A stretch of DNA of 64,000 bases from positions 1,010 to 65,009 of the IMG/VR virus record IMGVR_UViG_3300016675_000632, one strand, 5' to 3'. How positions within the stretch are numbered: position 1 is the first letter of the stretch; every line of letters begins with the position of its first letter. Below are positions 16,238-63,888 of this stretch, in pieces. Both the position numbers and the translations under genes were made by a program. This stretch comes from a virus. The notes beneath the pieces are model-generated. The model made no database searches. It was not told where the DNA came from and saw only the letters and a list, made by a program, of their open reading frames with translations.

Positions 16238-16702
16238 ATGTCTAAAAAATTTAATCTTGCCCTATTGATGCGCCAAATTATTAAGGCGATGCGCGGGTTT
16301 AATGACTTTGCTCCAGCTATTGGAGAAGATAAAAAAATCACAGAAAATCAACTATGTGAGCGGCTTATCGCATTAGGTTATTCAAAAGTGCCTAATAACT
16401 CGCATATTTGCGATGCTATCCGAGATATTCGGCATTTATACCTAAATAAGCCAAAGTTTGAAAACGGCGTTTATTTTTGGCTAATTAGCGGCGATGATGA
16501 AATGGGCTTGCCGTTTGAATTTCGAGCTACTGTGTTTGATTTTGTGGCTGGCGATAAATTTGGTAGATATTTAGCCGAAACCGAAGATGAGCTAACCAAA
16601 TACCAAAATTTGCGCTATGCAGATGCAGCCAACCAAAAGAAAAACGGCAACGCTGCGGGATATGCAGCTAATTTTTTAGCCCTCCAAAACCGCCCAAAAT
16701 AA
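16238..16702 (+). CDS. Hypothetical protein
   Basis: ORF track; TTGCAAC-N16-CGTAAA upstream at 16179-16207. Confidence 0.75.
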   Translation: MSKKFNLALLMRQIIKAMRGFNDFAPAIGEDKKITENQLCERLIALGYSKVPNNSHICDAIRDIRHLYLNKPKFENGVYFWLISGDDEMGLPFEFRATVFDFVAGDKFGRYLAETEDELTKYQNLRYADAANQKKNGNAAGYAANFLALQNRPK

Positions 16703-23358: not shown

Positions 23359-23739
23359 ATGTTAAATATCGGAAATAAATTTAAAGCTAAAACTATTGCT
23401 GATTTGCAAGTTGGCGACGTTGGCTATATTGTTACGTGGGCAATTTTTGCAGACAAAGACGGCAATGTCTATCTTGACGGCAGCCACACTGTAGATAGCA
23501 ATCCTGGAGGCACAGTAAAAATAAAAGTTGGGCGTTCTTATAGTGGCTATTGGGCAGAACTTTTTCGCTCTTATAGCGACCACCCTATCCACAAACGCGA
23601 GAAAATAATTGACCGCGTTAAAGTAGCCCCCGAAAAGTCTATACCTGTGCATTTTGACAAAAAGCCAACTATTTGGCAGGATTTACAAGCTGCTATCAAC
23701 GCGCAGGATTTGGACGGCGTTAAAACTATTTTAAAATAA
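23359..23739 (+). CDS. Hypothetical protein
   Basis: ORF track. Confidence 0.75.
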   Translation: MLNIGNKFKAKTIADLQVGDVGYIVTWAIFADKDGNVYLDGSHTVDSNPGGTVKIKVGRSYSGYWAELFRSYSDHPIHKREKIIDRVKVAPEKSIPVHFDKKPTIWQDLQAAINAQDLDGVKTILK

Positions 23740-42016: not shown

Positions 42017-43009
42017 TTATTTTGCTATAAGAAAATCCAAAACATTAGGCACTGCTTCTTGAGTCGTTGTGCCTCTATCTCTTTGCAGTCTGGCGATTTC
42101 CGCGCTTAATCCGCGCTCGCTCACCTCATCAACAAGCCCAACTTGGCGGGCATCTTGCCCATAATATACTTGACCTGTTAAAATCTCTGGCACATTTTCG
42201 GGCGTGGCTGTTGATAAGTCAAATTGAGCGATGCCAGCTTTTACGCCGCGATTGTTTTGTATATCGCGCAAAAACACGCTATTTATCTTATCCAATTGCT
42301 CGATAAGCAGCTTATCGTTGCCTTTCATAGCGTCCTCGTAAGCCTTGTTTTTGTTGATGGATAAACTCGCCTTAATATCCCTTGTAACAACGCCCAAATT
42401 TTTCTGGTACTCACTCCAATTAGACAAACTAACTAAAATGCCAATGCTACCGACTTGCGCCGTATCTTCTGCCATAATAATTTTATCAGCCCCCGAAATC
42501 AACCAATAAGCAGCAGAGCAAGCGCAACTATCAACAAAAGCCCAAACTTGTTTTTTATAAGTCCCTCTAAATTTTGTTATTGAGCGGCTCAAAGTTTCAA
42601 CTCCAGCGACCTGCCCGCCCCCGCTATCTACGGTTATCATTACAGCTTTTATCCTTGGGTCGTTGCCGATAATATCAAGCGATTTGCTTATTTCGTCTAT
42701 ACCATAGACCCAGCGACCGTTCCACCAATCAAAATAAGATTGCTTTTGTATAAAGCCCCTAATTTCTAAAATAGCTACATTGCCATAGGTTCGCCCATCA
42801 ATTTCTAAGCTACTTTGGATTTCTTGGTCGTCTGCAAATTGTGAATACTCAACTATTTTCTTTTTGTTGGTTGCTATTTTGAAGCCCAAAAAATCAAAAG
42901 GGGGCTTACTTTCGCCTTGCGGGGTTTTGATTTGTTGGCTGTAACTATTTTGCGCCCTTGCTAATTCGGAAGCATCTATTGCCAACGGGCGACCTATTAT
43001 ATCAATCAT
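42017..43009 (-). CDS. Head maturation protease, peptidase S49 family
   Basis: VDSGGG, CACSAAYWLISGAD, QVGSIG, KNKAY motifs. Confidence 0.9.
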   Translation of the reverse strand: MIDIIGRPLAIDASELARAQNSYSQQIKTPQGESKPPFDFLGFKIATNKKKIVEYSQFADDQEIQSSLEIDGRTYGNVAILEIRGFIQKQSYFDWWNGRWVYGIDEISKSLDIIGNDPRIKAVMITVDSGGGQVAGVETLSRSITKFRGTYKKQVWAFVDSCACSAAYWLISGADKIIMAEDTAQVGSIGILVSLSNWSEYQKNLGVVTRDIKASLSINKNKAYEDAMKGNDKLLIEQLDKINSVFLRDIQNNRGVKAGIAQFDLSTATPENVPEILTGQVYYGQDARQVGLVDEVSERGLSAEIARLQRDRGTTTQEAVPNVLDFLIAK

Positions 43010-50621: not shown

Positions 50622-53600
50622 ATGGCACAAAATAAAATAGTCGCTATCCAATTTAAGGCTGTAGGCTCGGAGGAGATATTAGAGAAGCTAACCAATCTAA
50701 AAGTCCAAACGAAGCAAATAACAGCCGAAATAAAAGAGTTAGAAAAAGCCCAAAAGAAAACCAACGACCCCGCACAAATAAAGGCTTACGAGCAGCAAAT
50801 ACAGCGACTTATTGCCACGCAGGGCGATTTGAAAGCTGAATATACAGCAACCAACAAAGAGTTAAACCTACAGCGCAAGGCTTTTTCTGCTGTTGGTAAC
50901 GCCAAAGGTAGTATAGCGGGCTTGCGGGCTGAATACAACCTGCTAAACGCGCAATTGGATAAACTCTCTGATGCCGACAGAGGCTCGGACTTTGGCAGGG
51001 GCTTAGAAGCGCGGGCAAAGGAAATCAAAGATACAATAGATGATGCCGACCAGCGCATAGGCAACTATAGGGGAAATGTGGGCAGATATGCCGATGATAT
51101 TGTTAAGGCTCTGCGCAGAGCAGGTAGCGAAACTGCTTTTAATGATAGATTAGACAAGCTTAACAAAGAAACCGTAGATTTGGAAAAAGAGGCGGCAGAC
51201 TTAGCCAAACAATACGATAAAACTTTTGAGCAAACAGGCGAAGCATCAGAAGCTGCAAGAAAGAAAATTATCAAGGAGTTGGTAGCCGTCCAAGACCAAA
51301 TAAAGGAAAACCAAAGCAGCATAAAGAACCTAAACAAGGAAATTGAAACTGTAGGCGATTCGGGAAAAGCAGGCAAAGGCGACAAGATAAGCGGGCGTTC
51401 CGTAAAACGGGCGGGCAAATTAGCGGGCTTGGGTGGCTTGGCTGACTTAGCTGGAGGTGCGGTGGATTTGCAGAATATATTGGGCAATTTAGGACCTGCT
51501 GGCATAGCTGCTTTTGGCGTATTCGCTGCTGGTGGGCTGGTGTTCAAAGGCATACAAGCCCTAACGGAACTAAATAAGCAAATTGGGGCGGTTCGTGGGC
51601 AAGTGGCTGAATTATCGGGCGCGTCTGGTGCTGAATTGGAAAAACTAACGGTTGATGTTCGGGCTATAGCTGCCACGTTTGGACAAAGTGAGGACGAAAT
51701 TATCCAACAAACCAAAGAAAGAGCCAAACTAACAGGGCAAAGTTTCCAAGAGGCACTCGGCGAAATACAAGGCGCGTACTTAGAAACAGCCAAAGCCACA
51801 GGCGTATTCACCGACCAAGTAGATGCACAGCTCGCGGCGCAAAAACAATTAGCAGCAGCGCAAAGCGAATTAGCCAACAAATTCAACGATACGGGGCTGA
51901 ACTTAGACTTGCTCACAACGAACCTAAAAACGGGCTTTTTTAACGCGTTGATAGCAATTTATGATACAATTAAGCCAATTATTGATATTTTCGTAGATTA
52001 TGGCAAGGCAATAGGTGGAACGATTAGCCGGATATTCAACTTCTCAAAAGCGACTACCAACTTGGGCGCGGTGTTCAAAATTTTAACCGTACCCGTTCGC
52101 GTGTTGGGCGTGTTGGTCACGAAGTTGTTTGAGGGCGTTAATTTTGTGATTGATAGCTTTTCCCAATTTATCGCAGACAGTCCAAATATACAAGCGGTTT
52201 TCTCTGCTATAGGAGATGCTATCGGGCTAATCGTTGAGGGGTTATCTGCTATACCAGACGGCGTTAGTTCGTTTATAGAGGCAGCAGCAGGCACAGTTCG
52301 CGATGCAGCAAGTTATGTTACGGGTGGATTGATAGACGACAGCGCAACAGCAGCAGCCAAAGCAGATGCAAGGGAAGCGGGCAGAACTATAGCTGAAGGC
52401 TTGGTTGATAGATACGGTGAGGGTATCAAGGAAATAAGCGTTAAAACACAGTTAGAAATCGCGCGGGCTGGCGGAAACGCCATAACCGAAGCATTGCAAG
52501 CTGGTAAGAGTTTGAGCGAGGCTTTCGCCGCAGGATTAAGAGCAGGCGACAAAGAGGCGAGCAAAAGCAATTTAGTTGCTATACGCAAAAAAACGGTTGC
52601 CGAGATAGAAGCCGAAAATGAAAAGTTAGAAGAAGCGCAAAAGGAACGCGAACAGAAAGCAAAACAAGCCGCGCAAGAGGCAGCCAACGAGCGCGAAAAA
52701 CAAGCAAAAGATGCGTTAGAACGCATAAAAGAGGGCAACGCGGCTACACTTTCCCTGCTCAAAGAAAACGCCCGCAAACGCCAAGATTTTGAAACTCAAA
52801 GTATCAAAAATGAATTTGAGCGTAGAGCAGCAGAGATAAACGAGGGCAGCAGTCGCGAACTCCAAGATTTTACAGAAGCGAGCCAAAAAGCAGCAGCAGA
52901 AGTGGCGAAAAGTTTTGAAACCAGCTTACAACTATTTGATGCAGGGGGCGAGGCTGCCGAAGCAATACGCGCCCGTTATGGCAGCAAAGAGGAAATTCAA
53001 CAGGCAGCCCAAGAAGCGGCGCAAAACAACGAGATAGCCATTATACAGCAAACCACGCTTATAAAGAACGCGCGGGATAAACAACTCGCAGAGTTGCAAC
53101 AAAGCAGGGACAAGGCAATACAAGAGGCGGTTAGCGGTATAAATGAAAATGTGTTGAATGATGCGATACAATCCGCCCAATCCAAAGTAAGCGGACAAGA
53201 ACAGCAAAAAGCCATAATTGAATTGGGGCTACAGTTGGACGAACAAAGTATAAACAGCGAGTTAGAAAGGCTCAAAAGCAGTTTAGCAGCCCAAAGAGAT
53301 GCAGGCATAATCAACGCTAAACAGTTCCAAGAGGCGATAAACGTATTGGAAAATTCAGCAGCAGAAGCACAGCTCAAAATACAAGAACGGCGATTAGAAC
53401 TAACCCAGCAGACGGATAGCCAAATTCTACAAAGCAGGCTGGAGTTACTACAAAAAGAACAAGAGGCTGAAATTAACCAAATCAACAGCCAATCTACAGA
53501 AAGACAAGCGGCTTTATTGAAAGACTTTGAAAACGGGCTGCTAACCCTTGAGCAGTACGATAGCGAAAGGGTAAGGATAAGCCAAGCAACAGCAGAGCAA

Positions 53601-54689
53601 ATACTATCAATCCAAGCAGACACAGCAGCACAAAGCGAACTATTGCGGGTTGAGCAAACCAACGCTCAAATAGCAGCAGCCCAAACTGTAGCCCAAACTG
53701 AAGCGGCAATTAATGCAGAATTACAGGCGCAAATACGCGAAGAACGGCAGGCTACATTGGATAATTACGCACAACAAGCGCAAAACCTACAAACGATTTT
53801 TACCGAAACGGCACAAATTGGTAACGATTTATTTACGGCATCGGATAACAAACGAAAGGCAGCTATAGAAGCGCGTTATCAGCAAGAATTAGCAGCAGCA
53901 GGTAATAGCGCAACCGCAGCAGCAGCAGCAGAGGAAAGGAAAGACCAAGCCCTACAAGCTATAGAAAAACAAGCAGCCGAGCGCAAAAGAAAGTTTGACA
54001 TAGGCGCAGCCATTACCAACGGCGCGGTGGCAGTTACTAATATATTAGCAAGCACACCAGACCCAACGGGTATTTTTACGCTTACGCGTATCGCATTGGC
54101 AGCCGCAACTGTAGCGGCACAAATTAAACTTATCAACTCGCAACAGTTTGAGTTGGGCGGAGTTTTACCCTCTGGTGATGGAATGATTAAGGGGAGAAGC
54201 CACGCACAGGGCGGAGTTAAATTTTTAGTAGGCGGGCGAAGTGTTGAGGTTGAGGGCAACGAATATCTACAGACGGACGAATACGGGCAACGGGTGATTA
54301 TCAACAAAAAAAGTAGCACCAACCCCAAATATAGGGCTATCTTAGATTATGTAGCCAATCAATCATTTAGGGGTAAGCGTGCGTTATTATCCCAAATCAA
54401 CCAAATGGGCGGCGGGGTTAAATTTGCTAAGGGCGGCGTTGTTCATCAGCCGATTAGCTACCCGCAAAAATTCGCTGTGGGTGGGCTGTTGCCCAGCTTC
54501 CCGTCTAATTCGCAGCAGATAACGGCGCAAAATCTTGATAAACTTGTGCTGGCTATCACTCAAAGCGTGGGGCAAGTTGCCCAACAATTAGATGCGAATA
54601 TGCGGGCTATAACGGTGCAATTAGACACAGAGGCAGCCGCAAAAAAGGGGAACGAAAATATCGCCCAAAACAAAATAATCACTTTATAA
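50622..54689 (+). CDS. Tail tape measure protein
   Basis: 1355 aa, helical A/Q/E/K-rich; RNVGRY-like motif; C-terminal FELGG...GRSHAQGGV...EVEGNEY. Confidence 0.9.
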   Translation: MAQNKIVAIQFKAVGSEEILEKLTNLKVQTKQITAEIKELEKAQKKTNDPAQIKAYEQQIQRLIATQGDLKAEYTATNKELNLQRKAFSAVGNAKGSIAGLRAEYNLLNAQLDKLSDADRGSDFGRGLEARAKEIKDTIDDADQRIGNYRGNVGRYADDIVKALRRAGSETAFNDRLDKLNKETVDLEKEAADLAKQYDKTFEQTGEASEAARKKIIKELVAVQDQIKENQSSIKNLNKEIETVGDSGKAGKGDKISGRSVKRAGKLAGLGGLADLAGGAVDLQNILGNLGPAGIAAFGVFAAGGLVFKGIQALTELNKQIGAVRGQVAELSGASGAELEKLTVDVRAIAATFGQSEDEIIQQTKERAKLTGQSFQEALGEIQGAYLETAKATGVFTDQVDAQLAAQKQLAAAQSELANKFNDTGLNLDLLTTNLKTGFFNALIAIYDTIKPIIDIFVDYGKAIGGTISRIFNFSKATTNLGAVFKILTVPVRVLGVLVTKLFEGVNFVIDSFSQFIADSPNIQAVFSAIGDAIGLIVEGLSAIPDGVSSFIEAAAGTVRDAASYVTGGLIDDSATAAAKADAREAGRTIAEGLVDRYGEGIKEISVKTQLEIARAGGNAITEALQAGKSLSEAFAAGLRAGDKEASKSNLVAIRKKTVAEIEAENEKLEEAQKEREQKAKQAAQEAANEREKQAKDALERIKEGNAATLSLLKENARKRQDFETQSIKNEFERRAAEINEGSSRELQDFTEASQKAAAEVAKSFETSLQLFDAGGEAAEAIRARYGSKEEIQQAAQEAAQNNEIAIIQQTTLIKNARDKQLAELQQSRDKAIQEAVSGINENVLNDAIQSAQSKVSGQEQQKAIIELGLQLDEQSINSELERLKSSLAAQRDAGIINAKQFQEAINVLENSAAEAQLKIQERRLELTQQTDSQILQSRLELLQKEQEAEINQINSQSTERQAALLKDFENGLLTLEQYDSERVRISQATAEQILSIQADTAAQSELLRVEQTNAQIAAAQTVAQTEAAINAELQAQIREERQATLDNYAQQAQNLQTIFTETAQIGNDLFTASDNKRKAAIEARYQQELAAAGNSATAAAAAEERKDQALQAIEKQAAERKRKFDIGAAITNGAVAVTNILASTPDPTGIFTLTRIALAAATVAAQIKLINSQQFELGGVLPSGDGMIKGRSHAQGGVKFLVGGRSVEVEGNEYLQTDEYGQRVIINKKSSTNPKYRAILDYVANQSFRGKRALLSQINQMGGGVKFAKGGVVHQPISYPQKFAVGGLLPSFPSNSQQITAQNLDKLVLAITQSVGQVAQQLDANMRAITVQLDTEAAAKKGNENIAQNKIITL

Positions 54690-55168: not shown

Positions 55169-55206
55169 AAAAAGCCCACGCACTAATTGTAGCGTGGGCT
55201 TTTTTT
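55169..55206. terminator. Bidirectional terminator
   Basis: AAAAAGCCCACGC/GCGTGGGCTTTTTT. Confidence 0.85.
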
Positions 55207-56554
55207 ATCTGCCTTGTTGTAACTGTCTTTCTCTTCTCATACTCTCGGCAGCCAAGAATTTTAATGTGTTTTCTTCTAATGCGTATACCGTTGCATCTTT
55301 CAAGTGGTCGTTTTTTGTGGTCGTGTTGATAAAATCACCGTCCCTATTTTTTACCCATTGCAACTCTGAATACTCGCGTTTTAGGTTTTCGCTGCTGCTG
55401 TCTAAATATAATCTCTGGCTTTGTATGTAATTGATACCACTAAGAACTGAACCAGCCCCTTTTTTTGCCCCTCTTATGTAAATGCTGCCATCTCCTATTT
55501 CTCGTATCGCTTTTATCATTGCTGGGGCTGAACTATCGGCAGTAACCCAAATCTCGCCATTATCGCCAATGTAATTGCAATTGTTATCATACAACCATTT
55601 ATAAGCAGATAATATGCCGTCGGCTATTTGCTGATTGGTGAGCTGCGAACCGTACAAAAATTCTTTCACATACAACGCACCATCATAAAACCCAACAAGC
55701 ACCAATGCTGTAGGGTCTGTATATCCAAAGTCTAAACCCAAAGATAAACCTTCAGCTTTTGTAGGGAACTGTTCGCACTCTTTCCAATTGGGAAAAACCA
55801 AACCTTCAGCCCGTCCTGTTTTGCCCTCACCATAAACACGCCACCAATTAACATCGTGCCGTCTGCTCTCAATGTTAGATACCATAGCATCGGAAAGAAA
55901 GCGATTATCCTTGTAGGTTGAAGTAAAGGCGACCACGTGAGGATTTTTTATATTAGTGCCAAATTGCATTACTACCTTGGTATGCACCCAAAAACGGACG
56001 GAAGGGTTATAATCTATAAAAACAAGCTGCATAGTACGAACAGCTAAAGCATCATAAACCCCGTAAATTACGCTGGTAGCCTCGCAAATATAGGTATAAT
56101 CATATTTACCAAACTTTGCTTTTTCTACACTATCCACGCCCATAAATTGCAAAGTGCTGCCGTTTGAAAACGTGTAGGTGCTGGTACTTATATTGTATTT
56201 TATATTAAAGTTATTGCCCAAATCCTCGCATATTTTTACCGATATGGGGATAGCATCTCGGCGCAAAGAAGTATAATGTTTAGCAACCACGCGAACGGAA
56301 ATTTTATTACCCAACGGCTTTTCTCCCAGCTTTTTGTCTGGTCTTAGCTTTTCGCCGCGTAAGCATAAAAATATCATCAATTGCATCAACGAATAAGTCT
56401 TGCCGCTTGATGTGCCACCCTGATTAACTACCGTTTTTATATCCTCTCCGTAGTCTTGGCAGACGTGGTAATTACTGATAAAAATAGAGGAGGTTTCAAA
56501 ATTACAAACCTTTGGGCTTAGATATTCGCTGTTGATATATTCTATCATAGGCAA
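55205..56554 (-). CDS. terL: Terminase large subunit (PBSX family)
   Basis: Walker A QGGTSSGKT, YICEA, FIDYNP, GLDFGYTDP, DHLKDA. Confidence 0.95.
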   Translation of the reverse strand: MPMIEYINSEYLSPKVCNFETSSIFISNYHVCQDYGEDIKTVVNQGGTSSGKTYSLMQLMIFLCLRGEKLRPDKKLGEKPLGNKISVRVVAKHYTSLRRDAIPISVKICEDLGNNFNIKYNISTSTYTFSNGSTLQFMGVDSVEKAKFGKYDYTYICEATSVIYGVYDALAVRTMQLVFIDYNPSVRFWVHTKVVMQFGTNIKNPHVVAFTSTYKDNRFLSDAMVSNIESRRHDVNWWRVYGEGKTGRAEGLVFPNWKECEQFPTKAEGLSLGLDFGYTDPTALVLVGFYDGALYVKEFLYGSQLTNQQIADGILSAYKWLYDNNCNYIGDNGEIWVTADSSAPAMIKAIREIGDGSIYIRGAKKGAGSVLSGINYIQSQRLYLDSSSENLKREYSELQWVKNRDGDFINTTTKNDHLKDATVYALEENTLKFLAAESMRRERQLQQGR

Positions 56555-57495: not shown

Positions 57496-58950
57496 TTACT
57501 CGTCCGCATCGGGTGGGGCAAGAAATTGCGCCTCAATTTCTGCATAATGCAGCTTTATTTGGCGTGGGTCGCCCTTGTAAAAAATTAGTACGTTTTGGTG
57601 CGTCTTAACGACTTTTCGGTTTCTCATTTGTGCGCTCGCTCTGATGGAGGCGTTGCCCGCAACCTCTAATAAAATCAATTCGTTGTAGAGATGCAAGCCC
57701 GCGTCCATAAATATACGCTTTATGTCGTCTGGGAAAGCATAATAAGCTCCTTTTCTATCGCGCACATCACCCACAACTATAGCCGCAAAAGAATTTTCTT
57801 TTAAGCATTGGCAAGCATCGGTGAACGCATCGCGCAAGATGCTGATAAAATCTGCATAGGTAGGCTGATTGCTCGCATCGTTGGGCAAATCACTGTATAT
57901 CTCCAAATCATAGTAAGGCGGGCAAGAAAATAGCAAATCTTGGCTATCCTTGGGGACGTGCTGTAGAACATTGCGCCCATCATCGCAAATATAGCGTATT
58001 TGGTCGCCAAAGTCCTTTATATGTTCGTTATTGATAGCTACTTGTTCGGGGCGCAATTCAATCCCTACAAATTCGTTGCCAAAATGTACGGCCACGCGAC
58101 CAAATACGGTATCACCCGCAAAGCAGTTAAAATACTTACCATTGGGACGACCGAACCATTGGCAGATAATTTCACATAAAACGGGGTCTAATAAGGAAAC
58201 GCCGCCAACGAGGTAGTTATCGGGGACTTCGTAATAGTTTTCCTCAAACTCTTTCGTGGTCAGCGTGCGTCCCAATTCTTTTTCTTTCTGCTCTTTCTTT
58301 CGGTAAAACGCGGGGTCGTTTATAGCCATATCTTGCCGCAAGGTTTGCTCTCGGCTTTCGCCTTTGTCGTTGATAATAGCCCGCCAAATTCGCTTTCGTT
58401 CCTGCCAATAACCCTGTCGCGTATCCAACACCGAAAAGGGCGGCACACCAAAACGACGGGCGAGTGAGCCTGCGCGGTCTGCGCTTTCGGTTCTATGGTC
58501 GCTTATCGGTTCGGGTTCGGGCGTGGATAGCTCAATTTCTACGGATTGGCTTAGTTCCTCTATTTCTAAACCCCAGCTTTCAATTTCTACGACGGTATAG
58601 TCGGCCTGTAGAATTTCTATGTCCCATTCCCCAGCTTGGCTATTATCGGTGATGATAAAACGCCGCTTTTCCTCTTCGGTGAGGTTGGCACAGTCTTTTA
58701 TTCATTCTGCGGGAACGTGGCTATAGCCCAACTCGCAAAGGGCGCGGTAACGTTGCGTTCCGCCCAAAATTATGCCTGTGCTGGAGTCATACACAATCGG
58801 ACGGAGGGCAAGCATTTTTCAGAAGTCAGAAACGCTGGTTTTGAGTTTAGCTAGTGCTTCGGGCGATATTCAGCGTGGGTTGCGCTCGTTGGCGCGAATA
58901 GTGGAAAGGTCAAAAAGGGGCTTATCGCCCCAATCAATAACATTTTTCAT
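57496..58950 (-). CDS. ParB-like N-terminal domain fused to an N6/N4 DNA methyltransferase; three in-frame TGA codons in the ParB part
   Basis: ATG 58950 is in frame with the track ORF 57496-58446. NPR*I...DF*KML.LRPIV...ILGG.QRYRAL...PAE*IK...RFIITDN...GEWD; then SLARRFGVPPFSVLDTRQGYWQ, CFAGD, SCPPYYDLE. Confidence 0.8.
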
Positions 58951-61328: not shown

Positions 61329-61463
61329 TTAGGTGCGCTTATTTTTGCGCTTTTGGTAAAAATGCACAAACACACCGCCAGCTATAGCAAACAGCCCGCA
61401 AAAGGCGCAAAGAGGCAATAATGGGGCAAATTCGCGCGTATAAATTTCTATTATTGTATCCAT
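61329..61463 (-). CDS. 44-aa single-TM protein
   Basis: Hand translation MDTIIEIYTREFAPLLPLCAFCGLFAIAGGVFVHFYQKRKNKRT. Confidence 0.55.
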   Translation of the reverse strand: MDTIIEIYTREFAPLLPLCAFCGLFAIAGGVFVHFYQKRKNKRT

Positions 61464-61745: not shown

Positions 61746-61952
61746 TTAATCGCTTTTTTGGTGAGGTTGGCTGGGGTCGCTTCTGTGGGTTGCTTGGGGT
61801 TCGTTGTGGGGCTGCGTGGTTTCATTTTGAGTTGGGAAAAGCACAGCAAATAAAGTAAGCAACCCCGTTGCCCCCACGCCAAACTGCCAACCACCCCAAA
61901 GGAACGCAAACACAGCAGCAAAAAAAGCAAACATTTTTAGTATATTTATCAT
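61746..61952 (-). CDS. Small 2-TM protein
   Basis: ORF track; ATGA overlap. Confidence 0.65.
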   Translation of the reverse strand: MINILKMFAFFAAVFAFLWGGWQFGVGATGLLTLFAVLFPTQNETTQPHNEPQATHRSDPSQPHQKSD

Positions 61953-62767
61953 TGCTCACCTCCTTTTTTGTTACGGCGCATTGGCGTGTGTTTGCGTTGG
62001 TAATCTATCACTTCGGCTTCAGAGGGCAGCCCGTTGGGGAAATTTGCCTTGTCGTTAGATAGTTCTTTTAGTTTGGCATCGGCTATCTCTAATTCTTTTT
62101 TGAACATCAACGCCTTTTCACTTTGTCCCGCTTTATTGGCCGCCGCTATAGATTTGCGCAAATTGAGTTTTTTATGTATCAATAAAATGCTGTTTTGAAT
62201 AGGGAATTTCGCCTGTTGCATCTCGGCTATAGCTTCGCGTTCTTCGTCTGTAAATTGCAGCAAGTCGCTAAAATCGGGTTCTGGGGCTGATTCGTTCTGC
62301 TGTTGTTTTGTATCGTTCAACTCTATTACTCGTTGGGCTGCGGGTTCTGTTTTTTGGTCTTTGGGGACTTGCCATTGTCCGCGCTGTTGGGTGGATAGGT
62401 TGGGTTTATAATTAGGCACTTGCACGTCTAAAGTTCGCTTGTCTTTGGGTAGCCAAAAATCAGCTTGCAAAGTTTGTTCTTTAGATGTGGCATTACCAAC
62501 TAACCCGCTTGCATCTATAAACTCAAAATCTACCTGCTTGCGCTCATTTTTGCCGTTTTGCGCCTTTTGTCCGCCTCCCCCGCCGTTATTTTGGGCAAAA
62601 TCAAACAAAATAGGGGATATATCGCGCTTTTTAGACGTTTGGGGGCTGTTATCAGTAGGGCTGTAGTTTGGCTTTAGATGTTGGGCTTGGGTATCATCTT
62701 GTGTTTTAGATGTGTAATTTTCTTTATATTTGCGTGTTTGCATCTGCGCATCTTTCTGTTGGGGCAT
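61949..62767 (-). CDS. Low-complexity Q/N/P-rich protein with helical C-terminus; probable -1 frameshift extension of 62782-63861
   Basis: Frame is open upstream through C CCA AAC TAA; ends TGA TAA. Confidence 0.75.
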   Translation of the reverse strand: MPQQKDAQMQTRKYKENYTSKTQDDTQAQHLKPNYSPTDNSPQTSKKRDISPILFDFAQNNGGGGGQKAQNGKNERKQVDFEFIDASGLVGNATSKEQTLQADFWLPKDKRTLDVQVPNYKPNLSTQQRGQWQVPKDQKTEPAAQRVIELNDTKQQQNESAPEPDFSDLLQFTDEEREAIAEMQQAKFPIQNSILLIHKKLNLRKSIAAANKAGQSEKALMFKKELEIADAKLKELSNDKANFPNGLPSEAEVIDYQRKHTPMRRNKKGGEQ

Positions 62768-62791
62768 CGCATCTTCCCGTTTTAGTTTGGG
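62747..62791 (-). other. -1 programmed frameshift signal: C CCA AAC before TAA, possible downstream pseudoknot
   Basis: Heptamer 62785-62791; GGG...CCCC stem begins 6 nt later; loop UGCG could pair with downstream CGCA. Confidence 0.7.
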
Positions 62792-63861
62792 TTGGCTGTG
62801 GGGTCGTGCTTAGTTCCTGCGCTGGGCTTGGCTTTTTCTGCCGTCTTGGTTTGTATAGAAACGGGGGCTGGGTTAATTTGTACGGGCTGTTGGTTAGTAA
62901 CAATATCAAGGCAAGTTACTACTTCTATCATCAAACAGAATAGTAAAGCGCCAACCCCAAAAAGCATAATCAAAAAACCTATGCCCGCATATATTCTGTC
63001 GCTGATACCTAATGAGCTTTGCTGGGCAACAATTTCTGCATCGTAAGCTGGAGCTATCTTATCGTTAAAATAAAGTATTTTATCGCTTAGTTCTTTTTCG
63101 GCTTGTGCTAATTGTGGAGCCAAAAATTTAGCGGCTGCTTTCTGCGCGCTATCAATTTTTGACTGCGCCCAACCGTTGCCGTTCTTGGCCATCTTTTCTA
63201 TCTGTTTGCCAACAGAAACACCTTTGCTGGCTTCTTTGCGCAATTCAGCAAGTTTCTCTTCAGCAGGTCCAACAACCTTTTTATATTCAGCATCGCGGCG
63301 GCTGTTAATTTGGGTTACTTCTAATCGGTTTTCTTTGGCTTCTTCTTTGGGTCTGATTGTTGTTGCTGTTACATCTGAACCACCGTAAGAGGTAATGAAA
63401 GACACAGTAAAACCCGTTGTTGCGATAAAGAAAGATAGGCACATTTGCAACAGGCGAGCTATGCCAAACCCTGCAAAAAATCGGGTAATAACATTGTGAG
63501 CTATACCGCGAGAAGCAAACATATTTATCATATCGCGAGCAAATAGGACTTTGCACAAAATAAACAGCTCGGAAAAAGCTACGCGCGAATGCTTGCTAAA
63601 TAGTACGAAATCGCACAACAAAGCCACGCAAAACGCAAATACGAAGCAAAAGAACTTAAACACGCCGCCCCAAAATCCGATTAAGTTGGGCAAATCCACA
63701 AAGGGCGCGAAAGTTTCGGATAGTATTCTTTCAAAAAAAGAATAAAGGTAGATAGTAGAACCTATGGTACTAACCGCTAAAAAAAATAAATGTAAATAGC
63801 TGTAGCTTTTTTTAGCTTGGGCGCGAATCGCGGCGTTTTCTATGGTTAATTGACGTTGCAT
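62782..63861 (-). CDS. Membrane protein with about 3 TM, a coiled coil and a TM; paralog of 573-1571
   Basis: ORF track; same topology and shared AK(S/N)GN.WA motif. Confidence 0.8.
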   Translation of the reverse strand: MQRQLTIENAAIRAQAKKSYSYLHLFFLAVSTIGSTIYLYSFFERILSETFAPFVDLPNLIGFWGGVFKFFCFVFAFCVALLCDFVLFSKHSRVAFSELFILCKVLFARDMINMFASRGIAHNVITRFFAGFGIARLLQMCLSFFIATTGFTVSFITSYGGSDVTATTIRPKEEAKENRLEVTQINSRRDAEYKKVVGPAEEKLAELRKEASKGVSVGKQIEKMAKNGNGWAQSKIDSAQKAAAKFLAPQLAQAEKELSDKILYFNDKIAPAYDAEIVAQQSSLGISDRIYAGIGFLIMLFGVGALLFCLMIEVVTCLDIVTNQQPVQINPAPVSIQTKTAEKAKPSAGTKHDPTANPN

Positions 63862-63888
63862 TGGTTTGTAATTTTTGGATTAAGAAAA

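Follow-up and report, generated by a model that had tools for sequence, protein, structure and literature searches.

A probable -1 ribosomal frameshift in a conserved family of phage membrane-protein genes

In a 64,000-nucleotide (nt) stretch of the IMG/VR viral contig IMGVR_UViG_3300016675_000632 (hereafter the window; bases 1010-65009 of a 65,340-bp linear record with a CheckV completeness estimate of 68%) two minus-strand reading frames, 62782..63861 and 61949..62767, very likely belong to one recoded gene in which a -1 ribosomal frameshift gives a 359-amino-acid (aa) and a 637-aa form of a membrane protein, and the arrangement is very likely an ancestral and selected trait of the whole protein family. 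We refer to this locus as copy B and to a second locus in the window encoding a homologue as copy A, the two N-terminal proteins being 22% identical (tblastn E 8e-7).

The slippery heptamer and the -1 frame of copy B

The copy B gene ends ACA GCC AAC CCA AAC TAA, with a slippery heptamer in the X_XXY_YYZ register as its last two sense codons and the stop codon directly abutting it (Table 1), as the initial annotation had noticed. Translation bears out its further claim that the -1 frame runs straight into the downstream open reading frame (ORF): read from the heptamer this frame begins P K L K R E D A M P Q Q (PKLKREDAMPQQ...), includes the 272-aa ORF that starts at ATG 62767 and predicts a fusion of 359 + 6 + 272 = 637 aa. 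The bases following the stop are alike in the two copies, TAA AAC GGG AAG in copy B and TAG AAA CGG GGC in copy A, again as first described.

In the mechanism that we propose most ribosomes would halt at TAA 62782 and release the 359-aa form as an inner-membrane protein. On a fraction of ribosomes the P- and A-site tRNAs would re-pair together on C_CCA_AAC, moving from CCA-AAC to CCC-AAA, and the slipped ribosomes would then read 278 further codons in the -1 frame to yield a 637-aa isoform whose cytoplasmic tail is lengthened by a disordered linker plus a small helical domain. In most clades of the family the shift would be made more frequent by a hairpin located at the canonical distance and perhaps also by ribosomes terminating slowly at the stop next to the heptamer. 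The heptamers, their conservation and their turnover can be read in the DNA, and from these we infer the slippage itself and its efficiency.

Heptamers of this type occur in frame at 1.35% of codon positions in the window ORFs, and among 103 stop-to-stop ORFs that reach 100 aa there are 5 that close on a heptamer followed by a stop, copies A and B being two of the five. Such ends are also seen at 16238..16702(+) (C_CCA_AAA TAA) and 23359..23739(+) (T_TTA_AAA TAA, with a GCGCGGG/CCCGCGC hairpin 3' of the heptamer and stop), where the -1 frames comprise 56 and 13 codons respectively and do not enter the next gene; these two ends probably arose by chance.

Conservation and turnover of the frameshift signal

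A word-index search recovered B-type relatives in four protein clusters, and every B-type contig (L003-L009) carries C_CCA_AAC TAA AAY GGG AAG A at the end of N-terminal genes whose proteins share about 50% identity; the codon just 5' of the heptamer is AAC, AGC or GGC, in each case with C as its last base. The L003 extension is about 95% identical to that of the window and aligns with it from residue 1. In L006, which diverges from the other B-type loci past the junction motif, CCG takes the place of the ATG found 14 nt past the stop in the window, L003, L007 and L008. No ATG, GTG or TTG occurs in the -1 frame of L006 for 87 nt past the stop, yet this frame is open for 281 codons and its product aligns with that of the window from residue 1 at about 61-62% identity over 280 aa, which argues that the stretch is translated only by ribosomes coming from the upstream gene.

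L006 is difficult to accommodate if copy B consists of two ordinary adjacent genes, with the 272-aa protein made by an independent start at ATG 62767, possibly coupled to termination, and the heptamer a by-product of a conserved dipeptide or intergenic motif. Such an account draws on the ATG shared by the window and three relatives, on the lack of a strong stimulatory structure in copy B and on the position of the junction inside a conserved downstream block (95% identity in the L003 extension vs 50% in its N-terminal gene), so that the nucleotide conservation could be hitch-hiking. Two adjacent genes are nevertheless improbable in our judgement, as L006 lacks the ATG and still has an open and homologous frame, a start codon is missing over 81-147 nt in most other clades, and the base before the heptamer equals X in every checked locus with a canonical heptamer. 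In addition the C-terminal dipeptides of the family are chemically unlike (PN, GK, KK, NF, NP, PF, GF), their common trait being only that XXY-YYZ codons can encode them.

The arrangement is found with another heptamer in copy A, whose gene ends GCG GGA AAG TAG. Eight copy-A loci (L010-L017), 49-99% identical, all carry G_GGA_AAG TAG, and the -1 ORFs of these relatives comprise 256-260 codons, with 206 codons in L012 before its contig ends. In this frame the first ATG lies 132-147 nt past the stop and gene callers left a matching gap, while the extensions of the clade align from residue 1 (e.g. winA vs L013, E = 6e-15) and a basic motif, ARKVQQSNK...NPTKK, is conserved 5' of that ATG. Stretches of 81-147 nt that lack ATG, GTG and TTG yet are conserved as protein occur in many lineages, indicating that the -1 ORF is reached only by frameshifting. 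Each copy-A-type locus has a GC-rich stem, and these stems differ in sequence and loop size (CGGGGC/GCCCCG, GGGGYTGC/GCAGCCCC and GCGGGGCTG/CAGCCCCGC). A GAGGG element 11-12 nt 5' of the heptamer in window copy A, L010 and L017 resembles the internal Shine-Dalgarno sequence of dnaX and is not conserved family-wide.

An exhaustive profile search gave a family of 59 representatives at 50% clustering, most of them of 310-365 aa, which were scored for their C-terminal dipeptides at the protein level, with the heptamers themselves being read at the DNA level in L003-L017 and L019-L026. Among the latter L024, L025 and L026 were added by one related-locus search, and a search of IMG/VR and JGI with three family alignments found no further related loci. 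Five heptamer types occur in five clades. Besides those of copies A and B, L019 has A_AAT_TTT TAG with a hairpin and a -1 ORF of 201 codons, L023 has C_CCT_TTT TAG with a 10-bp hairpin and a -1 ORF of 158 codons, and L020, L025 and L026 have A_AAC_CCC followed by TAG or TAA with three different 9-11-bp hairpins and -1 ORFs of 101-111 codons, the products of which have a W-x-R-K-x-I-N-T...S-K motif in common. All five of these loci are without a start codon for 81-219 nt past the stop. In non-B loci with a canonical heptamer the hairpins are unrelated in sequence, fold at -9 to -24 kcal/mol and start 5-8 nt past the heptamer; they are single-sequence folds, consensus folding being unusable because hairpin lengths and sequences differ. 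In E. coli the highest-efficiency classes include G_GGA_AAG, A_AAU_UUU and C_CCU_UUU, while C_CCA_AAC and A_AAC_CCC fall outside the top classes, and 86% of heptamers exceeded background when combined with a stimulator (PMC4066793).

The layout that we propose for the family would be a heptamer forming the last two codons and abutting the stop (mostly TAG), usually with a GC-rich hairpin at a distance of 4-7 nt, and with a -1 ORF lacking its own start codon in most lineages. The abutting stop is TAG in nearly all non-B lineages (L010-L017, L019, L020, L021, L023, L024, L026 and copy A), which suggests that UAG is preferred at the shift site.

At the protein level the final dipeptide is compatible with a heptamer in 34 of the 59 representatives against a background of 9% in the last 60 residues of the same proteins, with 3-12 of 59 compatible at other offsets from the C-terminus. 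The common C-terminal dipeptides (NF, NP, PN, GK, KK, PF, LN, GF, GN and FP) are pairs that XXY-YYZ can encode, and compatible ends are found in 30 of 43 short forms (250-370 aa) but in just 1 of 11 in-frame long forms (at least 400 aa). The type of dipeptide varies inside sequence clusters, e.g. ENP, EKK and ENF in a single cluster, so the heptamer appears to have been replaced repeatedly with its slipperiness kept. The homologues thus show the excess of slippery ends before the stop that had been proposed as a check, and all A- and B-type relatives with DNA keep their heptamer. The initial annotation had also argued that two different heptamers at one position reflect selection on frameshifting and not a sequencing error, a view that gains support from the conservation in relatives and from the three further heptamers.

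Termination followed by reinitiation, or another route without slippage, would have ribosomes restart in the -1 frame at a non-canonical codon and make a separate extension protein. A stop that always abuts the junction fits such a route, as does a hairpin that could hold terminating ribosomes; it leaves unexplained, however, the fit of the last seven bases to X_XXY_YYZ in five clades with five sequences, and no start-like codon is conserved near the stop. As the combination of heptamer, 4-7-nt spacer and hairpin has moreover the geometry of known -1 signals (PMC4066793), we regard reinitiation as very unlikely.

We give almost no credence to the idea that an assembly or sequencing indel, or decay to a pseudogene, has split a single in-frame gene. 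Distant relatives of 400-593 aa do bear in-frame C-terminal extensions past the last transmembrane helix, but these long forms have no detectable sequence similarity to the -1 extensions. The identical frame break recurs in assemblies made independently for many different samples and studies (Logan, ENA, NCBI and JGI contigs); it always coincides with a slippery site, and none of the heptamers is a homopolymer run. One such contig, X7, from an independent freshwater assembly of an unrelated study and 95% identical to the window, spans 61900-63876 with no indel at the junction, its only indels being a compensating pair at 62731/62734, and DNA nearly identical to the window is present in freshwater, wastewater and sludge metagenomes of 12 studies. 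None of the sequencing runs listed there is recorded as RNA, and the few that bear an RNA-Seq label by tool guess may be DNA. Transcriptional slippage was rejected for want of a long homopolymer run, and stop-codon recoding because readthrough of the copy A TAG adds just 9 codons before a TAA and the copy B stop is itself TAA.

Several observations weigh against frameshifting in copy B or in parts of the family. The stem or pseudoknot that had been suggested 6 nt downstream of the copy B heptamer is unsupported as first described, amounting to a 3-bp GGG/CCC stem in a 92-nt fold with z = -0.49 vs shuffles, and of the two copies only A has a convincing hairpin. A weak candidate helix (UGCG/CGCA) proposed by RNAalifold from three sequences shows one compensatory change in L006, and its single-sequence folds are no better than shuffles. 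With AAC in the A site C_CCA_AAC lies outside the top E. coli efficiency class (PMC4066793), and with its own ATG 14 nt past the stop the 272-aa protein of copy B could be made independently. In the stretch before the first -1-frame ATG a codon-position signal is clear in one pair, L017/L010 (11, 7 and 21 differences at positions 1, 2 and 3; 11 synonymous vs 8 non-synonymous), and both this and the synonymous/non-synonymous signal are weak in all other pairs. L021/L022 have a non-canonical CCTAAAC with a -1 frame of 39 codons and the distant L024 has a non-canonical TTTCAAG with a -1 frame of about 60 codons. The naive binomial probability for 34/59 (1e-20) is not exact since the representatives are related, and the LN end of P0034 is not slippery in its DNA, which makes the protein-level count slightly too high. 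Copy B, with no significant structure, a second-tier heptamer and its own ATG, is therefore the weakest-looking member and its efficiency may be low; frameshifting in it nonetheless remains likely given L006 and the strictly conserved junction.

Table 1. Features of the two copies and of the surrounding window (all coordinates in window positions unless stated)
Feature	Position	Strand	Basis
Copy B 0-frame gene, 359-aa membrane protein	62782..63861	-	ORF list
Copy B slippery heptamer C_CCA_AAC, last two sense codons, X_XXY_YYZ register	62785..62791	-	sequence
Copy B 0-frame stop TAA, abutting the heptamer	62782..62784	-	sequence
Copy B -1 frame from the heptamer, 280 codons, to TGA 61951..61949	61949..62791	-	translation
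Copy B -1-frame ATG 14 nt past the stop, possible independent start of the 272-aa ORF	62765..62767	-	sequence; CCG in L006
Copy B junction motif TAA AAY GGG AAG A	62772..62784	-	nucleotide conservation, all B-type loci including L006
Copy B weak candidate helix UGCG/CGCA, 62768-62771 with 62745-62748	62745..62771	-	RNAalifold, three sequences
Copy A 0-frame gene, 332 aa, homologue of copy B	573..1571	-	protein comparison
Copy A slippery heptamer G_GGA_AAG, then TAG at 573..575	576..582	-	sequence; kept in L010, L011, L012-L017
Copy A hairpin CGGGGC-AATTGC-GCCCCG, 6 bp, 6 nt past the heptamer	552..569	-	folding, z = -2.0
Copy A -1 extension, 257 codons, past the window start to contig base 821	1..582	-	translation
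Head protease	42017..43009	-	window annotation
Tape-measure-like protein	50622..54689	+	window annotation
Large terminase	55205..56554	-	window annotation
DNA methyltransferase	57496..58446	-	window annotation

Protein architecture and comparison with known systems

Hydropathy and charge predict four transmembrane helices in the copy B N-terminal protein at about residues 25-43, 63-88, 134-158 and 294-312. An AlphaFold2 model of this protein, made with 46 family sequences and having a predicted local distance difference test (pLDDT) score of 90, contains helices spanning residues 10-50, 63-107 and 134-169, then a long helical hairpin formed by 172-212 and 230-323. From these predictions we infer a topology in which the N-terminus would be inside, the hairpin of about 130 residues outside (periplasmic) and the C-terminal tail cytoplasmic. 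The copy B extension is predicted to begin with about 175 disordered, Q/N/P-rich residues followed by a helical hairpin of about 90 residues that ends in an invariant PMRRNKKGGEQ, and its AlphaFold2 model has pLDDT below 50 for residues 1-174 and 78-93 for residues 200-270.

A Foldseek search of AFDB with the N-terminal model placed proteins of DUF4407 (PF14362), an uncharacterised bacterial membrane/coiled-coil family, at ranks 1, 6, 18 and 19 with probabilities of 0.99-1.00 and near-full-length alignments, although with E values of just 1e-3 to 4e-2 and template modelling scores (TM-scores) of 0.23-0.36. DUF4407, which is rarely mentioned in the literature searched, may be alike in overall architecture and predicted fold, but the TM-scores are low and neither window protein matches PF14362 in Pfam above threshold; among 46 family members just 1 hits the model, at E = 0.004. 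No significant match came from Pfam, PHROGs or PADLOC, whether the query was an N-terminal protein, an extension or one of the small downstream ORFs. With the N-terminal model Foldseek against the PDB returned generic ABC-exporter helices only and an Atlas shape search returned only 'hypothetical protein, Uroviricota'; with the extension an ESM Atlas feature search gave nothing informative and VIA-align of the model found generic helical hairpins only (Z <= 8).

A Rosetta-stone test found no convincing BLAST similarity between the in-frame extensions of long relatives and the -1 extensions, the best match covering 40 residues at E = 0.003, and the in-frame long forms consequently support the architecture only. 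Other modules follow the last transmembrane helix in a number of distant members (P0050, P0051, P0061, P0056, P0048, P0057, P0058, P0065, P0066 and L024:2414-3469). Among these the in-frame P0050, P0051 and P0061 have FCS-x-K-C-R zinc-ribbon-like ends and P0056 has an HExxH metallopeptidase-like motif, and in one subfamily a D-x-N-x-D-G-x-I-D calcium-binding-like loop stands directly after the last transmembrane helix.

The tail assembly chaperone is treated as the standard phage frameshift case by the PRFect paper (PMC10885494). In lambda gpG/gpGT, too, ribosomes slip into the -1 frame shortly before the first ORF ends and make a minor, C-terminally extended fusion at a fixed ratio, and the G_GGA_AAG of lambda is also used by copy A. 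A G/GT chaperone was rejected for the window genes, which are in the wrong position, encode four transmembrane helices and have no PHROG or Pfam match. The lambda protein is a soluble chaperone of about 140 aa in contrast with the 330-360 aa found here, the tape-measure candidate lies on the other strand and does not adjoin, and the heptamer abuts the stop and hence leaves no overlap region. The work of Xu, Hendrix and Duda from 2004 is said to show that the slippery sequence of the chaperone genes varies between lineages while the frameshift arrangement is kept.

The family resembles dnaX (tau/gamma) and the orfAB genes of the insertion sequence (IS) elements IS3 and IS911 in its X_XXY_YYZ heptamer, in having a stop close by and, in most clades, in a stem-loop or pseudoknot that follows after a short spacer. 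The dnaX shift shortens its protein, in contrast with an extension by 100-280 residues predicted here, and the IS fusion joins a DNA-binding domain to a transposase, where in this family a variable cytoplasmic tail would be added to a membrane protein. In T7 gene 10A/10B, reportedly described by Condron et al. in 1991, ribosomes are said to slip in the last codons before the stop and to add a C-terminal extension to a minority of the protein. This is however a capsid protein with an extension of about 50 aa, compared with up to 280 aa on a membrane protein here, and no family-wide arrangement with heptamer turnover is known to accompany it, unlike in the present family. We found no description of frameshifting in this family, the literature searches having turned up only surveys of tail chaperones, IS elements and a few other classes.

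Genomic setting and significance

The contig is that of a tailed phage, with replication and exonuclease genes present in addition to those of Table 1, and on the minus strand the methyltransferase and terminase genes are found downstream of the copy B gene. The two copies are at opposite contig ends. The last 471 nt of the contig (64870-65340; window 63861 onward) are 83% identical to contig 2581-3050 (window 1572-2041), just upstream of copy A; this repeat consists of the 3' part of an upstream 199-aa gene and a leader, and its two occurrences are 62.3 kb apart. The order past both copies is alike, comprising the extension, two small transmembrane ORFs and a methyltransferase of differing type. 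This may reflect a true duplication or a circular or permuted genome of about 62.3 kb wrapped into the hypervariable cassette of a second strain, in which case A and B may be allelic, and the claim that they are paralogs in one genome is unsupported as it was written. Under either origin the comparison of A with B is valid evidence for selection.

The cassette is mosaic, with a boundary at the frameshift site in L003 (L003:1230), and a contig of run X3 stops matching the window precisely at position 62791, in the heptamer. The X3 contig also seemed to link a B-type leader to an A-type gene, but we set this aside as uninformative because the A and B leaders are nearly identical. A speculative reading, to which we attach rather little confidence, is that the heptamer serves as a joint at which variable membrane/periplasmic 'sensor' modules and cytoplasmic tail modules recombine, with the shift setting the stoichiometry of short and long forms in a complex that might be used in phage-phage or phage-host conflict. 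The tails would be coiled-coil here and zinc-ribbon or HExxH-peptidase in the in-frame relatives, and the conflict may concern e.g. superinfection exclusion or the timing of lysis.

One or two tiny ORFs encoding single transmembrane helices (44-68 aa) lie 3' of the extension in both copies, at 61746..61952(-) and 61329..61463(-) for copy B and within contig 1-820(-) for copy A, and in the examined relatives with downstream sequence. The first of them overlaps the stop of the extension (ATGA), and its strong AAGGAGGT ribosome-binding site is placed within the invariant PMRRNKKGGEQ end. The copy B extension ORF ends TGA TAA (61949-61954, -). In a crude set of 58 window genes TAA is used as the stop 48 times, TAG 8 times and TGA twice, and this rarity of TGA in the phage agrees with possible TGA readthrough or recoding; the frameshift finding is unaffected. 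In two distant lineages an Amidase_3 endolysin is encoded 1-2 kb upstream on the opposite strand (L019:797-1462 and L023:552-1217), which hints at a link of the family with the lysis region. The hypervariable cassette, and in some relatives the nearby endolysin and tiny membrane-protein genes, offer weak hints as to the role of the family. The likely purpose of the shift, as far as the sequences suggest, would be to hold a fixed ratio between a short membrane core and a longer product by which a variable cytoplasmic module is tethered.

To our knowledge few conserved -1 frameshift genes have been established in bacteria and phages besides the tail chaperones, dnaX, IS elements and a few capsid genes. 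The candidate recoded membrane-protein system put forward in the initial annotation stands up as a conserved gene family that very probably employs a known -1 frameshift mechanism and is apparently undescribed. It would add to these cases a whole phage membrane-protein family, seen in metagenomes of freshwater, wastewater and sludge and comprising about 60 clusters at 50% identity, in which the frameshift signal has been kept through at least five heptamer changes. In most lineages the downstream ORF is annotated as a separate and truncated gene because it is called from a later ATG, so these gene models can be corrected, and the family supplies a natural series of heptamer and hairpin variants for frameshifting next to a stop codon. 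For the phages themselves it points to a membrane protein made in two isoforms.

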